64,000 nucleotides of DNA, from assembly GCA_041690355.1 (NCBI GenBank), contig JAWLHK010000018.1, forward strand, positions 1 to 64,000, given 5' to 3'. Under the pieces are notes generated by a model. The model saw only the letters and a list, made by a program, of their open reading frames with translations, was not told where the DNA came from and searched no databases. Positions 57,501 to 64,000 of this stretch are shown in pieces; position 1 is the first letter of the stretch, and each line of letters begins with the position of its first letter. The translations under genes and the position numbers were made by a program. Origin of the DNA: a bacterium (GTDB taxonomy: Bacteria; J088; JAWLBW01).

Positions 57501-58647
57501 AACGCTCGACGCTTCGGCTCGAAGCGGTCAGCATTCGTCAATTGCGCTTGATCGAGCCGGTCGGCTTCATATCGCCTACAGTGAAGATGACGGCTACCTT
57601 CGTTACCTCAACACCGCGCCCGGCGTGTACGAAAAGACCATCGTACACGCCACGGGTGACGCGGGAGAAATGTCGTCGTACGCACGGGCGGCGACAGGGG
57701 TAGAGTTCATTGCCTACTACCAGGCGTCGGGCCAGAACCTTCGTTTTGCCTCGAACGTTACCGGGGTATGGGAACACCGCCTGCTGGATGGAGACGGCGA
57801 GGTAGGCTGGTTTCCGTCCTTGGCCGTCGACGCCGACGGTCTTCCTCACGTCGCCTACTACAAAATGAGCCAAGCCCTCAAGTACGCGACGGCAACCTCT
57901 AGCGGCGTTTGGAGCATTGAAGTTGTCGACGATAGCGCTGATGCAGGCCGTGGAGCCTCGCTTGCATTGGACTCGACCGGGGCCGCGCATATCAGTTATC
58001 ACGATTTTGATGCGAAAGATTTGAAATATGCCACGAACGCATCCGGCAACTGGGTGATTACGACCCTCGAGTCCTCTGGAAACGTCGGCTACTTCACGTC
58101 TATTGCCGTCGACAACCAAGATAACGTGTATATTGCCTACCAGCACCCTGGTTACAAGGAACTCCGGTACGCCACCAATCGGGGAGGATCGTGGTCGTTC
58201 ACAACCATCGATAGCAACGGGGATGCCGGCTGGGCGCCCCAGCTCGTGCTGGACGAGAACGACACGCCACATATTTCCTACCACGTGTGGCCGGGCGAAA
58301 CTCGCTACGCAACGCTGCGAGGAGGAGGCTGGCAGATTGAAAGTCTAAATGACCTTGTGGGGAACACGGCGATTTACTCGTCCATCGCTGTTTCCGGCGG
58401 ACGCATCGGCGTGGCCGTCGAAAGCTTGGACCTCGGCGGACTCGTCTTCGTGGAAAAAGGTACGGGCCGCTGGACTGCCCATGTCATGGACATTGAAAAA
58501 GGCGGCGCCCCATCCCTTGAATTTGTGAATTTCGACGCAGCCTACCTCTCCTACTACGATAGGAATGCCAGAGACCTGAAATATTTATCCTTTCACTACC
58601 AATGCAGCGAAGCAAAGCAGGTTGAGCGAATCGGCCCGTTCGACTGA
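54544..58647 (+). CDS. Giant surface lipoprotein: carboxypeptidase-regulatory-like, Ig/Fn3-like and beta-propeller repeats
   Basis: Leader ending HYAC; VRDEAGN/VEDRAGN Ig-like motifs; many L(K/R)YATN.SG.W repeats. Confidence 0.78.
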   Translation: MKRHLILVASALVHYACSAELEHQGPFDPMTDAAKQAPAEVSGKITLEGESDYAGVNILFSGPTEKSTVTLADGSFSTNGLVPGRYRITYSARGFQEISQVLELSLGERLELPTGGLALRTATVRGEIKSDDESLLDVTGSQIRIRRIYGPRASSQAGPALRRSAEVLDDDEDSFTDFTTVDSDGTYEYDGVKAGTYTMIVKQEGAVSTETEFNVSGETEDVTVKPQVIKPLSGVFSIRGTLRDGSVSLAYTVTRDVTVLATAYNASFVQLGEDRGNGCIYGIDQELEAAMDIRLSAGDGLKTACMRLKDNAGASSPDIRSTIFLDATPPTVPFLELNGGREYTTDDIVTAEVFASDTGAGVHRIHYRFGAATTSTINYVPSFIHGLTQEGEQDLWLQVEDRAGNLSLPYVIPLRYDGTPPISPAVEILGSEGVALRTAREIVTLQLSYPDDAAEMRLSNLADLSGVPWQAVTPSLPWQLYSGDGVKTVYVQVRDEAGNASAISAATITLDQSPPETPALQVFDIDGDGFALSSTRVELRWSQAIEGDLASYELQVFVEGLSTSFVAEATPGPSQFEYASDVSMTTGYTHNYRVRAADDLGNTSAWSNIAIAKPFDPVGVVCSVEAGPDQFSLGWSPGVGTYTIESTLSKRNAFGTATFTDLTANQVFAGYAAPFALPEQAMDYELILRQSNQDNSLSYRSTFDAPGPYRKRLGAGGLYVAIEMDLAGAIHIGHWDLYKNDLLYTTNKGGEWVTESVESAGRVGEYADMTLDAHGYAHFSYYDGYPNNDLKYATNASGSWQVYTVDATGTTGWQTSIAVDSQGAAHVSYHYQTENDLRYATNESGSWQSYTLDTAGNTGQYSSIVVDSDDRIHIGYLNVDQNRLYYATNKSGGWTRELIGPASIYTNMAVDGEGGLHIAYEYDSQIWYAENTTGTWTRQAVDPSVSVGRDPGIALDLQGRVFITYRDYGNDSLKLATNLSGGWENATLDASARSGQHSSIALDRAGRLHIAYSEDDGYLRYLNTAPGVYEKTIVHATGDAGEMSSYARAATGVEFIAYYQASGQNLRFASNVTGVWEHRLLDGDGEVGWFPSLAVDADGLPHVAYYKMSQALKYATATSSGVWSIEVVDDSADAGRGASLALDSTGAAHISYHDFDAKDLKYATNASGNWVITTLESSGNVGYFTSIAVDNQDNVYIAYQHPGYKELRYATNRGGSWSFTTIDSNGDAGWAPQLVLDENDTPHISYHVWPGETRYATLRGGGWQIESLNDLVGNTAIYSSIAVSGGRIGVAVESLDLGGLVFVEKGTGRWTAHVMDIEKGGAPSLEFVNFDAAYLSYYDRNARDLKYLSFHYQCSEAKQVERIGPFD

Positions 58648-58717
58648 TTGACGCATTGGCAGGTGGAATTGCGGTCGGCAAGAAGGTCGACGGCATGAAG
58701 ACCGTAGGTCAAGTATA

Positions 58718-59022
58718 CTGCGCCTGAGTTCTCCCGAGGTAGAAGCACGGACCAACCGGTGGGGAAATTATCCGGTCCTTCCCGGCCGCAAGCCCGGAGG
58801 CGGGAGTCAGCCCGGTTCCCGCGCCCGCCGGCAGGTCGCCATTTTCGCGCTCGCCATCCTGCCGGCCGTGCTCACCGTGCATGCGCTGCTGAACGGCGCC
58901 CCGGACGTCGGAGACGCGGTGGCGCCGTCGTCGCGTGCCTGCTCCTGCTCTTCGGCGGCGCGGGCGCTCTCCTGCTGCTGACGTGGCTTCTCGAGCGCTT
59001 GCTGGGGGGGGGAGGGGGGTAG
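58718..59022 (+). pseudogene. Membrane protein copy 3, 5'-truncated with a 1-nt deletion near 58920
   Basis: Aligns to the 3' two-thirds of copies 1 and 2; gcggtggcgcc vs gcggtgggcgcc. Confidence 0.85.
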
Positions 59023-59596
59023 CGATAACGGAGTGATGGTGAGCGGCAAGGCCCACGTATTGCTAAGAATCCACCAGAAAGCGGGGACGGCCGCAGTCCG
59101 CTCGAGTATCGGGTTAGACTAGGAGGAGTGTCTCCTCCCGGCAACGGTCAATGAAAAGCGATATGACGGCCAAAGAAAGTCTAGTATATGCAACGTCGAT
59201 GCCGATCGCCGACTTATCGTTAACCCCTTGAGACCGGCTCCCACTTGCCGCCCGTGTATGTCTCGACCCCCAAACTGAGTATTTGGCTGCACGCCGTGCA
59301 GGAGAAGTAGTAGATAGGAATGTCGTCCCAGGTACCTCTCTCTGAAATTTCAGAAATCGGCGGGCTTGAGATCCTTATTTAGCCACTGGGCCAAAAGTCC
59401 GATGGCTCCAAGCGGCCGGCGGCGATCTCTTCTTTCGCTAGTCTGATCGGGTCGAAGGTCCCGTGGCGATTGAAGCGCTCGCAGAGACTGCACATCCTGC
59501 TTCGTTTCTGGCACATGGACCGTTCGGGGCTAACTCTTGCTGTGGTGATGATGCCTCACGGTCTAACATCTATTGGGCAGCTGCACCACCAAAAGG

Positions 59597-60607
59597 TCAT
59601 GGCAGCTCTGTCGGCCATGTTGCGGCATAGACCTGACGACAAACTACATCCCATGCATTCCAGTCTTTCTTACGCGGAGCTCCTGGGATGCCCCAGTATC
59701 CGTCACCGGGCATTTTGTCGGTCTCCGAAACCACGATACTACTGATGGGAGGAAGCGCGTGCTCGGTGCAGCGCCGACTAACCTGGCCCAACGGGGTACC
59801 CCATCTCCTCCGCTCAACCCTGACATCAGCCCTTACGAAGTAGGCGTCCGAAAGTTCCTGATAGGTGATCGTGTCCTTTGTTCGGACAATTGTAAGGAGA
59901 ATCTCGTAGACAACATTCAGATCAACATGCGACTCGGGGGGTGCGCCCTCAACTCGCTCTCTTCCATTGGGCTTTGACGGGGGCTGGTTCGTATGTTGAG
60001 ACCCGTGCGACGCAGCCATTGGTTGGAGTGGAATCGGGCGCTCTAGCGGTGGGAGACCTGGCACGGCTGGATGTTGCAGCTGCGAGGCGTCTCGATAGGC
60101 CCGTTCGTAGCGCGCCAGCCATGAGTCGTCTGGTTCGACGCCGGCACCCCACGCTTCATCGAACACGTTGACCAGACTACGAATAACCTCGTTGCCTTGG
60201 GGACCCGCAAGCATCAGGTTGACCTCGGTGTTCTCGCCGAAGCCACCAGACGTGAAGTTGCTCGATCCAATGACGATACGCGTAGTGGAACCGTTGCTTG
60301 CGACGAGCAGCTTCGGATGAAAAACTCCGCCAGCTTGGTGAATCACACGAAGCACACGGAGTGCGTGTAGTTGTCGGAGGACGAACGGCTCGGTACGGTT
60401 GAAGTGAACGCCGAGGATCGCCCTGCGCACCTTTCCGAGCGGCAGAGCCTTCCAGTGATTTGCAGTACCTTCGCCGGAGGAGGCCCAAGCGTAGGCCAGG
60501 TCGATATAGCTCGACCAATCCGCGACGCCACGGAGTGCGGCAACCAACTCGACCTCCGTAGCGAGAACCTCAACTGAAAGCACGTTGCTGACTCCTTTTC
60601 GCTGCAT
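59597..60607 (-). CDS. Phospholipase D-family (NgoFVII/BfiI-like) nuclease domain plus C-terminal domain
   Basis: FHPKLL...IGSSNFTSGGFGENTEVN; Pro-rich linker; start uncertain. Confidence 0.82.
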   Translation of the reverse strand: MQRKGVSNVLSVEVLATEVELVAALRGVADWSSYIDLAYAWASSGEGTANHWKALPLGKVRRAILGVHFNRTEPFVLRQLHALRVLRVIHQAGGVFHPKLLVASNGSTTRIVIGSSNFTSGGFGENTEVNLMLAGPQGNEVIRSLVNVFDEAWGAGVEPDDSWLARYERAYRDASQLQHPAVPGLPPLERPIPLQPMAASHGSQHTNQPPSKPNGRERVEGAPPESHVDLNVVYEILLTIVRTKDTITYQELSDAYFVRADVRVERRRWGTPLGQVSRRCTEHALPPISSIVVSETDKMPGDGYWGIPGAPRKKDWNAWDVVCRQVYAATWPTELP

Positions 60608-60744
60608 GGAGTGCCGACCTACTCAGGGAGGAAGTTCCGGTCTGCCCAAGTTCCAGGTCGCCGGCGGCGGCCCCGCGGTATCCCAAATTTACCTCATCGC
60701 TAAGCAGGCCGCAGTCCGCATGAAGTAGGCTTGTTAGAGTGAGA

Positions 60745-62343
60745 CTATATGAGTGCACTTTCTGCGGGTGGGATGTCGTCAACCTCAGAGACGGACAATG
60801 GGGCATCTTCATCTGGTGGATTGAACACGTCTAGATACTGATGAAGCGTCATTTTCTTTCTAGTTTCAATGCAATCCCGAAACAATCCGAAATCGGCGCG
60901 GTCCGTGAACAGGGCGTTCTGATTTAAGAAAGTCATTCGAGTCAGAGGGTCTCGAAGCTCTGGCTTTCGCTTAAGGTAGCCATGAAGGTTATTGCTGGTA
61001 ATGAAATAAGATATCCACGTTATAAGATATTTATTCCGTTGTTCGTCACGAGAAAGAGCGATTAAGTAGTCTTCGAGATGCGCAACAATCGTTGCATGTC
61101 GTTGTGATTTAGCGGAACTTGGAAGCAGAGCCTCTAAAATTGCTAGAACCTTTGGAAAGGACTTGGTGCGAAGTCGCGCCATCATGAAAAGCATGCTGAT
61201 TATATTTTCGGTCTGGCCACCGGCCAGTGAAACCTTGAGACTTCCATCGGCAGTCACAATGTCTGCGAGGAACCGATCGATTACGCCCGTGCCTGGATAC
61301 TCGCGGTCTATCCGTAGGACAGCTAAATACAGCTCTCTGAACTCCTTCCAGGTGTAGCTTCGACGCGGCCTCGGAAGAGCTAGATGATACATAGAAACCC
61401 AAGGTCTAAATAACCCATCTGGCAATGACGAAATCGTTGTCTTTTCTTCTCCAAGTTCTAGGTTAAAGGTTTTCAGCGCTGTCTGCAGGTGCTTCACAAC
61501 TTCAACCGCATCGCTTTCGGACTGTACGAGTATTCTATAATCGTCCTTAAACCTTACCGCCTGGCACCGGATTTTGCTCTTGCGCAGTTGCTTTGAAAAA
61601 ACGAGATCTACAGCTGCAGCCAACACTTCGGCAATGACGTCCGAGACAACCGGGCCGATTGGGATACCGTTTGTGCAACCATCGTTGGCGTTCTGGAACA
61701 AACTGTCCAGCTTGTTCCCTATAAGCGAGAAGTCGCGGAGATTATGCTTGGCGCGGACGAAATCTTTTCCGTGAATCGCCCAAGCGATAGTATGTGTGTA
61801 GATTGACCGGTAATAGTTTCGGATGTCAGCCTTCACAATATGTGAATATTCGTATGCTACCGAGACGAGTTGGTCTTCGGCCACCCGTATATACTCATAA
61901 ATCGCGCGACCCGAGCGAAGCTTGTTGAGGCGTCCTGGGTGTCTCGAGTCGATTGGGATCGGGAAGCTATAGCATACTACGTCACTCTCCGCTGGCAGCA
62001 TAGCATCGACAATTTGCGCCCAGTTCGAGGTGAGAGCGATGACTATGTCATGGTGGACTAGCGGGTCAATGATGCCGAAAGTGCGGTCAGTTAGTCTTGT
62101 CTTAGGAAAATGAATCGTTGCACACTCTGTGCGCTCTGGTTTGTATTTCCCATTCTCTTTAACGATAAAGTAAGGCCGTCCAGTTTGAGGGTGCTTCACA
62201 ACCGTAAAACACGGGGGTAGGACATAGGACTCCGGGAAATAGCCATTCCTTAGAAGCCAGTTTTGAAGAGGCCGTTCTTCGAGGGCAAGTGCTAGCTCCC
62301 GAGTTTGCTCATGATACTGGCGAAGGCGATTGATTGGATCCAT
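60745..62343 (-). CDS. Reverse transcriptase of the UG/Abi (DRT) class, possibly DRT4-like
   Basis: NGYFPESYVLPPCF, KADIRNYYRSIYTHTIAWA, GIPIGPVVSD, RFKDDY; helical C-terminus. Confidence 0.9.
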   Translation of the reverse strand: MDPINRLRQYHEQTRELALALEERPLQNWLLRNGYFPESYVLPPCFTVVKHPQTGRPYFIVKENGKYKPERTECATIHFPKTRLTDRTFGIIDPLVHHDIVIALTSNWAQIVDAMLPAESDVVCYSFPIPIDSRHPGRLNKLRSGRAIYEYIRVAEDQLVSVAYEYSHIVKADIRNYYRSIYTHTIAWAIHGKDFVRAKHNLRDFSLIGNKLDSLFQNANDGCTNGIPIGPVVSDVIAEVLAAAVDLVFSKQLRKSKIRCQAVRFKDDYRILVQSESDAVEVVKHLQTALKTFNLELGEEKTTISSLPDGLFRPWVSMYHLALPRPRRSYTWKEFRELYLAVLRIDREYPGTGVIDRFLADIVTADGSLKVSLAGGQTENIISMLFMMARLRTKSFPKVLAILEALLPSSAKSQRHATIVAHLEDYLIALSRDEQRNKYLITWISYFITSNNLHGYLKRKPELRDPLTRMTFLNQNALFTDRADFGLFRDCIETRKKMTLHQYLDVFNPPDEDAPLSVSEVDDIPPAESALI

Positions 62344-62353
62344 CCGGACTTCC

Positions 62354-63205
62354 TCACCCCTTCTTTTGAAGAGCAGTTAACAGTGCACCGGCCACAATAC
62401 CCATGACCTGGACAGCGGAACGCGCTTCTTCCGTGGAAACTCCTGAAACCCAAGGCCGACCGTGACCAGTTCCTTCTTTGTTGCGTAATGCGTTCACCGC
62501 ACAGCCCATGTCATAAAGGGCGCGCTGGAAACGCTGTATCGCTGGCATCCTGGCCGGTTCTTGCCCAGCAGGTGCCTCAAACCCTACGGCTACGAATGCT
62601 TGCCCTAACAATGTGGGAAAATTGGCGTGAGTTTGATAACTGCCGAAGCGTTCGCAGATCACATGAGCTGCTGTCGCTTCGAGAAGGTCTTTCCCTGTAC
62701 CAAGCAACAAAGCAGCGTCTTCGCTGCCGCGCCGCGCTCGCCTAACATAGGCTTCCAAAGCGCGACTAAGGTCAATGCCAGAAAGTGTATCGAGGGAAAG
62801 CGGGCTGAGCGTGCCGTCACGTCCCAATAAGTAGCCTTCTGCCTCAAAAGCCGCAATGGCATCTGTTACGGTATGCTCCCCGACAAAATTCGGGGAGTCC
62901 TTTCGAAAGCCTCCTTTTGCTCGGATAACAGAAAGAAGTGCAGCAACGAATATCTCGCCTTTGACAGGCGCCTTATCGATGGCGTCCGATAGTATTGCTC
63001 GGACCCGCTTTGCTTTACCGACAACCTGGCCCTGAGCCTTTGGGTCCGCTGGAGTCAGACCTGCGCGATGTACTTGAAAATCAATGTCGGAGTGCGAGGG
63101 CTCACGGTGTCTATCTGACTGCGCATCGTTTACCAGGTTAGCGACGGCAACGATAATCGTGTCGGAGAGTGGGGCTCGAGGCCTCTTATCTGGGGGTAGA
63201 GTCAC
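62354..63205 (-). CDS. Abortive-infection Abi_C (AbiJ-related, HEPN-like) protein
   Basis: GTGKDLLEATA...LRNKEGTGHGR...EAR. Confidence 0.82.
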   Translation of the reverse strand: MTLPPDKRPRAPLSDTIIVAVANLVNDAQSDRHREPSHSDIDFQVHRAGLTPADPKAQGQVVGKAKRVRAILSDAIDKAPVKGEIFVAALLSVIRAKGGFRKDSPNFVGEHTVTDAIAAFEAEGYLLGRDGTLSPLSLDTLSGIDLSRALEAYVRRARRGSEDAALLLGTGKDLLEATAAHVICERFGSYQTHANFPTLLGQAFVAVGFEAPAGQEPARMPAIQRFQRALYDMGCAVNALRNKEGTGHGRPWVSGVSTEEARSAVQVMGIVAGALLTALQKKG

Positions 63206-63479
63206 AAAGCTAAGGGTAGCAGGAGGAGCCCCTTCGGTCTAACATCCATTGACCGGCCCCTCGCCGCCTTCCAACCCGGCGGGCGCCAGTCGAACGGTCG
63301 ACAGCGTTTGTCTCTCCCCCGGCAGGCAGGGCGAATTGGTACGCGACGGGCAGGATGCGATACGGCTTTCGTGCCAACACTATACCGAGCGACCGCTCTG
63401 GTAAGCAACCCAGCGATAGGGAGCCCACGCGGGGCTGGGGAAGGGGAACACTGTGACCGCGCGCCGCGCGGGCCGAGAC

Positions 63480-63812
63480 TCAACCGATGTCCTCAAGGTC
63501 GAGCGCAATCGTAAGGGCCCGGTCCAGCTCCTCGAGTTTCAGGGTTCCCAGGGACCCCACGAAATCGGTGAGCACTTCCTTGCGAAGCGACACCAAAGCG
63601 TCGCAGTGGATGCTGCTGTCGTGCTTGAGCCCTTCCGGGGCGCCGACGGGGACTTCGGTTTCGAGCCCATGATAGGCCGTGTAGACCGGTGCGCAGACCG
63701 CGGTCGAGAAACGGGAATCGAGAAGAACCTGCCGGCTGACGATCACGAAGACACGGGTCCGCTTCGGGTCGCCCGACGGGTGGCGCACCCGATACAGCTC
63801 GCCGCGCCTCAC
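63480..63812 (-). CDS. PemK/MazF family endoribonuclease toxin
   Basis: [17 protein letters not shown] and [11 protein letters not shown] motifs. Confidence 0.92.
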
Positions 63813-64000
63813 TCGGCGTCCTGAAACGCGAGCACGTCTTCGACCTCTGCATTCAAGGCGTCAGCCAGCCGGTCGAGGCGTTTGCGTTCGCGCGCCTCAC
63901 GCGCGGCTTTTTCGTGCCGGACCACGTAGGCGGCGACCGCCTCTTCGATGAGCTCGGACCGGGACCGCTCGGCGTAGCCGCCGCGATCGAGCGCTTTCAG
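63809..64000 (-). CDS. Ribbon-helix-helix antitoxin (5' end outside the window)
   Basis: LKALD...[10 protein letters not shown]...[16 protein letters not shown] overlap with the toxin start. Confidence 0.8.

Follow-up and report, generated by a model that had tools for sequence, protein, structure and literature searches.

Abi_C/HEPN, UG14 reverse transcriptase and PLD nuclease genes lie together in a probable, repeat-bounded cassette of a J088 bacterium and lack conserved linkage elsewhere

The stretch of DNA analyzed here (64,000 nucleotides; positions 1 to 64,000 of contig JAWLHK010000018.1, from a bacterium of the GTDB lineage J088; hereafter the window) carries at 59597-63205 three open reading frames (ORFs) that follow each other head to tail on the minus strand and encode, in order, a protein of the Abi_C family, a reverse transcriptase (RT) of group UG14 and a nuclease of the PLD type. 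An Abi_C/HEPN protein, an RT with an FKDD motif and a PLD protein, with a flavour of anti-phage defence, had been read from the letters of the sequence before any database was searched (the sequence-only reading), and the Pfam, PADLOC and fold searches agree with it. The same reading had proposed a three-gene system in which the product of the RT gates an RNase and/or a DNase; the surveys of gene neighbourhoods do not bear this out.

The three genes are AT-richer than the host, as first noticed, with GC contents of 0.548 (Abi_C), 0.485 (RT) and 0.582 (PLD) vs 0.65 for positions 1-40000 of the window and 0.70 at the local maximum; the GC contents at third codon positions (GC3) are 0.49, 0.51 and 0.61, respectively. 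The Abi_C gene ends with a TGA at 62354-62356 and the RT gene starts with an ATG at 62343, with 10 bases in between; a Shine-Dalgarno-like GAGGAAG lies just 5' of this ATG and overlaps the Abi_C stop codon. From the RT stop codon to the ATG of the PLD gene there are 137 bases, and both spacings are those given in the sequence-only reading. The MazF-type toxin-antitoxin pair that it placed upstream is also there, as a PemK_toxin gene and an RHH gene on the same strand; this pair looks native, with host-like GC3 (0.79 for MazF and 0.78 for RHH; about 0.8 for neighbouring host genes) and a position outside the repeat-bounded insert. Folding of the RT/PLD spacer (137 nt; z -0.47) and of the Abi_C/RT spacer (z -0.98) was no better than that of shuffled sequences, no structured RNA was matched in Rfam at E <= 1 across 58600-64000, and a scan for promoters and terminators gave counts at the level of shuffles. 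The features are collected in Table 1.

Table 1. Genes, spacers and repeat copies at the locus (positions in the window)
Feature	Position	Strand	Remarks
PLD gene	59597-60607	-	336 amino acids; Pfam PLDc_2, 28.8 bits vs cut-off 27
UG14 RT gene	60745-62343	-	532 amino acids; RVT_1; PADLOC RT_UG14, E 9e-197
Abi_C gene	62354-63205	-	283 amino acids; Pfam Abi_C, 46.2 bits vs cut-off 24, E 4.8e-12
Spacer Abi_C stop/RT start, 10 nt	62344-62353	-	sequence read directly
Spacer RT/PLD, 137 nt	60608-60744	-	
PemK/MazF-type toxin gene	63480-63812	-	PemK_toxin, E 2.2e-10
RHH antitoxin gene, 76 amino acids	63809-64039 (past the window end at 64000)	-	RHH_1, E 0.0015, below cut-off
Right repeat copy, 17 nt	63235-63251	.	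CGGTCTAACATCCATTG; 29 nt upstream of the Abi_C start
Left repeat copy, 17 nt	59559-59575	.	CGGTCTAACATCTATTG; 21 nt past the PLD stop

The Abi_C protein belongs to a large family of proteins of about 280 amino acids, and the 119 other clusters listed share 58-68% identity with the window protein; the Pfam match covers residues 198-272, and R241, N242 and H248 of the motif R241-NKEGTG-H248 (R-x6-H) are invariant in an alignment of the family. A structure model (predicted local distance difference test, pLDDT, 85.9) was used for a wide search with VIA-align, in which residues ~140-283 matched HEPN domains (11 of the top 12 rows HEPN-related, Z 6.1-8.3); the matches comprised 3o10 and 2hsb (Z 8.3 each), HEPN toxins, Csm6 and the HEPN domain of AbiA (8oz7; Z 5.7), in a range of Z values that a shared arrangement of helical bundles may suffice to produce. 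A Foldseek search of the same model against the PDB gave nothing at E <= 0.001. As judged from the model, the C-terminal domain (~140-283) is a HEPN domain. No Pfam family was assigned to residues 1-190, even at E <= 10, and no PADLOC model matched the protein. The N-terminal helical domain (~14-125) gave weak matches to 8ss1, a death-like domain from bacteria (Z 5.8), and to several CARD domains (Z 4.5-5.3), values which helical bundles can reach through arrangement alone and which serve as a lead only. Literature searches found no experimental test of any member of this Abi_C family. On two plasmids, a gene of the family adjoins a small gene annotated as 'recombinase family protein' (L173, 3986-5385; L174, 3348-4771), which hints at how the Abi_C gene travels.

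The RT matched the PADLOC model RT_UG14 with 652.7 bits over model positions 4-492 of 493, and the next-best models, Drt6 (226.6 bits), AbiP2 and Drt4, gave E 1e-67 or weaker. Because the RT_UG14 match is end to end, the others are far weaker and Drt4 stays below its cut-off, the protein is classified by sequence as a full-length member of group UG14 of the class 1 UG/Abi RTs. The sequence-only reading had not recognized the gene combination as a described DRT system; the RT itself proved to be of a known group, and no partner gene for UG14 was seen in main-text passages of PMC9226505. The RT family is well conserved: among 8000 candidates scored, 854 RT homologues had E <= 1e-10, and the 119 other homologues listed are 53-66% identical to the window RT. 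In a tree, the window RT and four metagenome proteins form a small clade apart from all genome-derived loci. The catalytic motif F265-K266-D267-D268 is the same in all 25 UG14 sequences aligned. The closest solved structures by profile alignment are those of DRT4/UG15 (9vdo, 21ou and 9ltm; E ~1e-33, and 1.3e-33 for 21ou), followed by Abi-P2 (7r08) and, more distant, AbiK; the match to the group profile reaches position 492, and the Abi-P2 alignment reaches profile position 436, the only, indirect hint of a C-terminal alpha-helical repeat (alphaRep) domain.

DRT4 is described as a hexamer, each subunit of which makes untemplated single-stranded DNA (ssDNA) primed on Tyr125 (bioRxiv 10.64898/2026.10.21.760695; 10.64898/2026.10.27.754916). 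The RNase site of the hexamer consists of His160 and Asp192, the 'HD motif' (bioRxiv 10.64898/2026.10.21.760695), and is switched on by phage ssDNA-binding proteins and deoxynucleoside triphosphates (bioRxiv 10.64898/2026.10.21.760695; 10.64898/2026.10.27.754916). DRT4 H160 aligns with UG14 H184 (in YTHSIAW) and D192 with D213 (in NRLDxLFQ), and both residues are invariant in the 25 aligned UG14 sequences. The priming Tyr125 aligns with Ser144 in a conserved LRSGR stretch, with an invariant Y149 nearby; Ser, Thr or Tyr priming has been reported within this RT class (bioRxiv 10.64898/2026.10.21.760695). The chain numbering of 21ou is trustworthy, since it reproduces the D149 and Y238-I-D240-D241 of these papers. 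We infer from the alignments that the UG14 RT is a self-contained DRT4-like enzyme, and it probably needs no partner, because the residues that form the built-in RNase site of DRT4 are kept. UG14 is one of seven groups 'predicted as novel defense genes' from their enrichment in defence islands (PMC9226505); UG12, UG10, UG7 and UG28 were tested for defence, and UG14 is given in the same paper as predicted only. A full-text literature search found no later study of UG14. No UG14 RT was found on plasmids (single match, 29% identity).

The PLD protein has an N-terminal domain of about residues 1-177, the only part in which its structure model is confident. H97, K99, G114-S115-S116-N117 and E128 are invariant across the family; the classical Asp of HxKx4D is replaced by Ser104 in the window protein, and this position varies across the family. 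The sequence matched SauUSI (7clg) with E 1.4e-4, and Foldseek returned SauUSI with E 1.9e-9 as well as NucT, Zucchini, Nuc, NgoAVII and BfiI; the PADLOC models matched were ZacB, DrmC and mREase_IV. From sequence and model together, the protein is assigned as a restriction-type HKD/PLD nuclease. The search for its family found 22 proteins including the window's own; only the N-terminal half is common to these and the C-terminal domains are swapped, as in modular, stand-alone nucleases. For the C-terminal part (~200-336) there is no Pfam match, and the model is of low confidence there; an Atlas feature search gave values of 0.88-0.89, to unnamed clusters or one auto-named, with no Pfam family.

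Linkage between the three genes was surveyed from the RT side in species-representative genomes of a collection of 185,579 species, where 156 stretches matched, 125 were confirmed as UG14 and the best 80 were kept (62 of them with at least 900 bp upstream, and 67 with at least 1100 bp downstream), and from the Abi_C side in metagenomes, where 310 of 483 matching stretches were confirmed and the 80 best retained (55-67% identity; 45 with at least 1700 bp downstream). The PLD family of the window was absent from all 80 RT loci and all 80 Abi_C loci; one of the latter (L108) carries an unrelated PLD-SNF2 helicase. Searches by tblastn and with the UG14 profile detected an RT near Abi_C in 0 of the 80 metagenome loci, and neither RT nor PLD accompanies the Abi_C gene in the three plasmid loci. 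No conserved neighbour of the Abi_C family was seen among the 80 loci. Viral contigs yielded one RT locus and one Abi_C locus only, neither with the partner genes. The RT homologues thus usually stand without these partners (Abi_C in 1 of 80, PLD in 0 of 80), an outcome which the sequence-only reading had itself named, along with protection or failure gene by gene, as the sign of ordinary clustering in a defence island. A Pfam run on co-oriented neighbours of the RT, 39 of them upstream and 44 downstream (L024, for which no RT ORF was called, was skipped, and two downstream entries that are fragments of broken RTs were dropped) showed a shifting set of defence genes, i.e. UvrD-type helicases (9 loci), large N6/N4 methylases (3), AIPR (2), BrxL, PIN, SIR2, HNH and others. 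A conserved three-gene system of RT, Abi_C and PLD is not supported by these surveys.

Two other arrangements were seen among the UG14 loci. In one subclade, the RT gene is wedged between genes for a large N6/N4 DNA methylase (938-979 amino acids in L004, L020 and L041) and a UvrD-type helicase (696-715 amino acids in L004, L020, L021 and L037), with reading frames that overlap or sit a few bases apart (L004, 2538-9039; L020, 3028-9620; L021, 609-4246; L037, 1877-5541; L041, 129-4215). This looks like a conserved three-gene arrangement and is reminiscent of UG35, described as a methylase fusion with UvrD (PMC9226505). In cyanobacterial loci (L027, 3482-7503; L029, 1485-5524; L040, 3425-7551), the UG14 RT follows a UvrD helicase of ~820 amino acids into which an RNase_T-type exonuclease domain is inserted.

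The two copies of a 17-nt direct repeat, identical at 16 of 17 positions, bracket exactly the three genes; the genome (4.64 Mb) has no third copy within 2 mismatches, and 0 of 100 shuffles gave two matches. Between the insert and mazF, 72 nt of non-coding sequence (63241-63312) share 74% identity with contig C103 of a genome of the same family (G004), and this match, which begins inside the right repeat copy, fits host DNA to the right of that copy, though it is weak. A search for an empty site in the four other genomes of the phylum gave only short matches on two different G004 contigs, from which no empty site could be rebuilt; the Abi_C gene was not found in these four genomes, and no integrase or transposase was found within or near the insert. 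Since the direct repeat brackets the three genes, their GC3 is foreign and Abi_C was not found in the four other genomes, the genes probably arrived together as one acquired, recombinase-less cassette of ~3.7 kb. Only 29 nt precede the first start codon, and the cassette may therefore rely on transcription from the mazF side. Joint arrival of the three genes does not show joint function.

Two further features lie left of the insert. An intergenic stretch of 95 nt (59023-59117) is 86% identical to an intergenic site in contig C42 of G004 and single-copy in its own genome, and it may be an unrecognized small RNA or regulatory element; Rfam and tRNA searches of it found nothing. A G-rich run (GCTGGGGGGGGGAGGGGGGTA; 59001-59021) is located in the same long non-coding stretch.

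The most likely reading, to which we give about an even chance, is that the cassette is an acquired bundle of three separate defence genes, each working alone, downstream of the resident RHH/MazF pair. Computed here were the family assignments and folds of the proteins, their catalytic residues, the composition and spacing of the genes, the flanking repeat and the absence of conserved linkage; what the proteins do biochemically, and that each of them defends by itself, we infer. By analogy with DRT4/UG15, DRT6, Abi-P2 and AbiK, the UG14 RT would make protein-primed, untemplated ssDNA; it would sense phage signals, for example phage ssDNA-binding proteins, whereupon its own RNase site would be turned on and the infection aborted. 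The N-terminal helical domain of the Abi_C protein may restrain the HEPN RNase until infection, and the private C-terminal domain of the PLD protein, as a putative HKD nuclease like SauUSI, BfiI and Nuc, presumably picks the DNA target. The Abi_C and RT genes are almost certainly co-transcribed and may be co-selected, and neither would depend on the other.

Several findings weigh against this reading. The 10-nt spacing with its ribosome-binding site and the equal GC3 of Abi_C and RT fit an operon, and the four closest RT homologues (P0002-P0005; 61-66% identity) lie outside the contexts that the RT survey covered. The one RT locus with a gene of the window Abi_C family (L010) has it directly upstream of the RT (52% identity, 55-nt gap); among 400 genomes of L010's class, the family turned up in 2, L010's own included, and since this family and UG14 are both rare, a second adjacency is unlikely by chance (expectation ~0.01-0.03 by our rough estimate). 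HEPN genes of any family (Abi_C, Hypoth_Ymh) stand beside the RT in 5 of the 80 loci, i.e. L010, L056 (AbiJ_NTD3 + Abi_C, the Abi_C being a distant relative of the window family), L059 and L044 (Hypoth_Ymh) and L078 (Abi_C). All six such genes are in the co-oriented block that touches the RT, and the gaps that were measured are 7-56 bp. When the HEPN neighbours, six in all, served as queries against 4364 six-frame ORFs from the RT loci, a second gene was added in L056 and none turned up elsewhere in the RT flanks. Within the same RT class, RT and HEPN have been combined several times, as in the AbiA fusion and in UG22 with a HEPN gene (PMC9226505).

Two of these loci have features of their own. 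In L056 (4258-7509), a Ymh-like gene, the AbiJ_NTD3 + Abi_C gene and the UG14 RT gene follow each other in one tight co-oriented row. In L010 (5106-7536), the Abi_C and RT genes have one in-frame stop each, i.e. a TAA inside the catalytic RNK*GAGH (the asterisk marks the stop) and a stop at WVSS*H of the RT; both are pseudogenes or assembly errors, the record being a metagenome-assembled genome.

Most of these findings also speak for a facultative two-gene module, which we regard as a reasonable but less likely reading. Its UG14 RT would be the sensor, Abi_C/HEPN an added RNase effector acting in trans and PLD a passenger; the ssDNA linked covalently to the RT, or phage ssDNA-binding/annealing proteins gathered on it, would release the HEPN RNase, in the manner of a split AbiA. 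Phage escape mutants of lactococcal AbiA, in genes for ssDNA-annealing proteins, also escape AbiJ (PMC13064643), in agreement with such a module, as is the presence of one stop codon in each gene of the L010 pair, with that of Abi_C in its catalytic motif. In the RT tree, the HEPN-bearing loci are scattered, with 4 changes among 6 rows and no more clustering than under shuffled labels (163 of 500), which fits repeated gains; this tree has 85 rows and was made by a quick method with loci of split or short RT ORFs left out, and the position of the L010 RT was taken from identity comparison instead. By that comparison the L010 RT is 65-67% identical to unpaired RTs vs 55% to the window RT, and the L010 Abi_C 57-60% identical to unpaired homologues vs 52% to the window Abi_C; the two Abi_C-RT pairs are, on these identities, not sisters, and this lack of co-phylogeny counts against the module. 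At least 98% of the Abi_C loci were seen without an RT, and the normal activation of the HEPN protein therefore cannot need one; similarly, 75 of the 80 UG14 loci have no HEPN neighbour, and the UG14 RT has kept the RNase residues of DRT4. Neither paired protein shows an extra domain, the window RT being only ~20 residues longer at its C-terminus. Taken together, we regard the RT-HEPN adjacency as an optional arrangement that has arisen repeatedly, perhaps under co-selection, and not as the mark of an obligate system.

A broader version, which we put forward tentatively and hold to be rather unlikely, is that HEPN RNase genes have been recruited to UG14 RTs again and again, each time independently, as an add-on second effector or second sensor; the partner would be a member of the present Abi_C family in L010 and the window, and a gene of AbiJ-like or Ymh type in other loci. 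The window would then hold a split, modular counterpart of AbiA, on a recombinase-less, repeat-bounded cassette with no obvious promoter and expressed from the upstream toxin-antitoxin operon, and both partners would answer the same phage ssDNA-binding/annealing proteins gathered on the protein-primed ssDNA of the RT.

An obligate three-gene system, in which the RT product gates a HEPN RNase and a PLD DNase, is improbable. In its favour, the genes point the same way, stand close together, have a foreign composition and share one bounding direct repeat, and the closest Abi_C homologue (P0221; 68% identity) and a PLD homologue (P0246) are from the same source, both with a longest contig of 14,898 bp, and may share a contig. 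Against this system stand, besides the absence of the PLD family from all surveyed RT and Abi_C loci, the small size of that family with its interchangeable C-terminal domains, a GC3 of the PLD gene unlike that of Abi_C and RT, and a spacer ahead of the PLD gene that could house a promoter of its own. Least probable of all is a toxin-antitoxin-like pair of retron-type or AbiE-like logic, with the RT or its DNA product as the antidote that silences a HEPN toxin: gene order and tight coupling would suit it, and the nonsense codon in the HEPN motif of L010 beside a broken RT would fit a toxin that is untenable once its antidote is lost, but the two mutations in that metagenome-assembled genome may have arisen in either order, the Abi_C homologues nearly always occur without an RT, and no conserved small neighbour is there to serve as antitoxin.

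The main lesson of the locus is that defence genes do not have to belong to one system even when they are tightly packed and co-oriented. UG14 so far stands as a group predicted to be anti-phage, and this small, intact cassette, from a phylum that has rarely been sampled, lends itself well to tests; mutations of H184 and D213, along with D267/D268, are a concrete prediction drawn from the conserved RNase residues of the DRT4 type. If the RT-HEPN pairing were functional, it would show how single-gene RT defences gain extra effectors.

In comparison with known systems, the window RT shares with the UG14 group the match to the full-length model and the same kind of defence-gene surroundings as those on which the defence prediction was based (PMC9226505), and differs in being almost certainly co-transcribed with an Abi_C/HEPN gene. 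With DRT4 (UG15) it shares the catalytic DD, the Mg-binding Asp, the H160/D192 positions and the form of a single polypeptide of ~530 amino acids; it is not an orthologue (152.5 bits vs a cut-off of 450 for NCBIfam Drt4), and has FKDD vs YIDD and Ser144 vs the priming Tyr125. AbiA, as an RT-HEPN fusion, and UG22 with its HEPN gene likewise join a class 1 RT with a HEPN RNase, whereas the HEPN protein of the window is encoded by a separate upstream gene from a family that occurs nearly always without an RT, so that the linkage is rare and not defining.

The Abi_C protein resembles lactococcal AbiJ/PF14355, HEPN proteins of abortive infection encoded by single genes, in length (283 vs 282 amino acids; PMC13064643), in its C-terminal HEPN domain with R-x6-H, and in the stand-alone occurrence of its family on chromosomes and plasmids, annotated as 'abortive infection family protein'; its N-terminus, however, matches none of the N-terminal Pfam domains of AbiJ, one of which, AbiJ_NTD3, is present in the neighbour of the RT in L056. 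The PLD protein has the fold and the H-x-K ... G-S-S-N ... E residues of SauUSI, BfiI, NgoAVII, Nuc, NucT, DrmC (DISARM) and ZacB (Zorya), and like BfiI it has one N-terminal HKD domain with a different C-terminal domain. It differs from the restriction-type HKD nucleases in a C-terminal domain for which no relatives were found and in the lack of a helicase and a methylase, and from the classical ones in that the Asp of HxKx4D is not conserved in its family. New in the present locus and its relatives are the 17-nt direct repeat around the three genes and the tight placement of HEPN genes of several families beside UG14 RTs.

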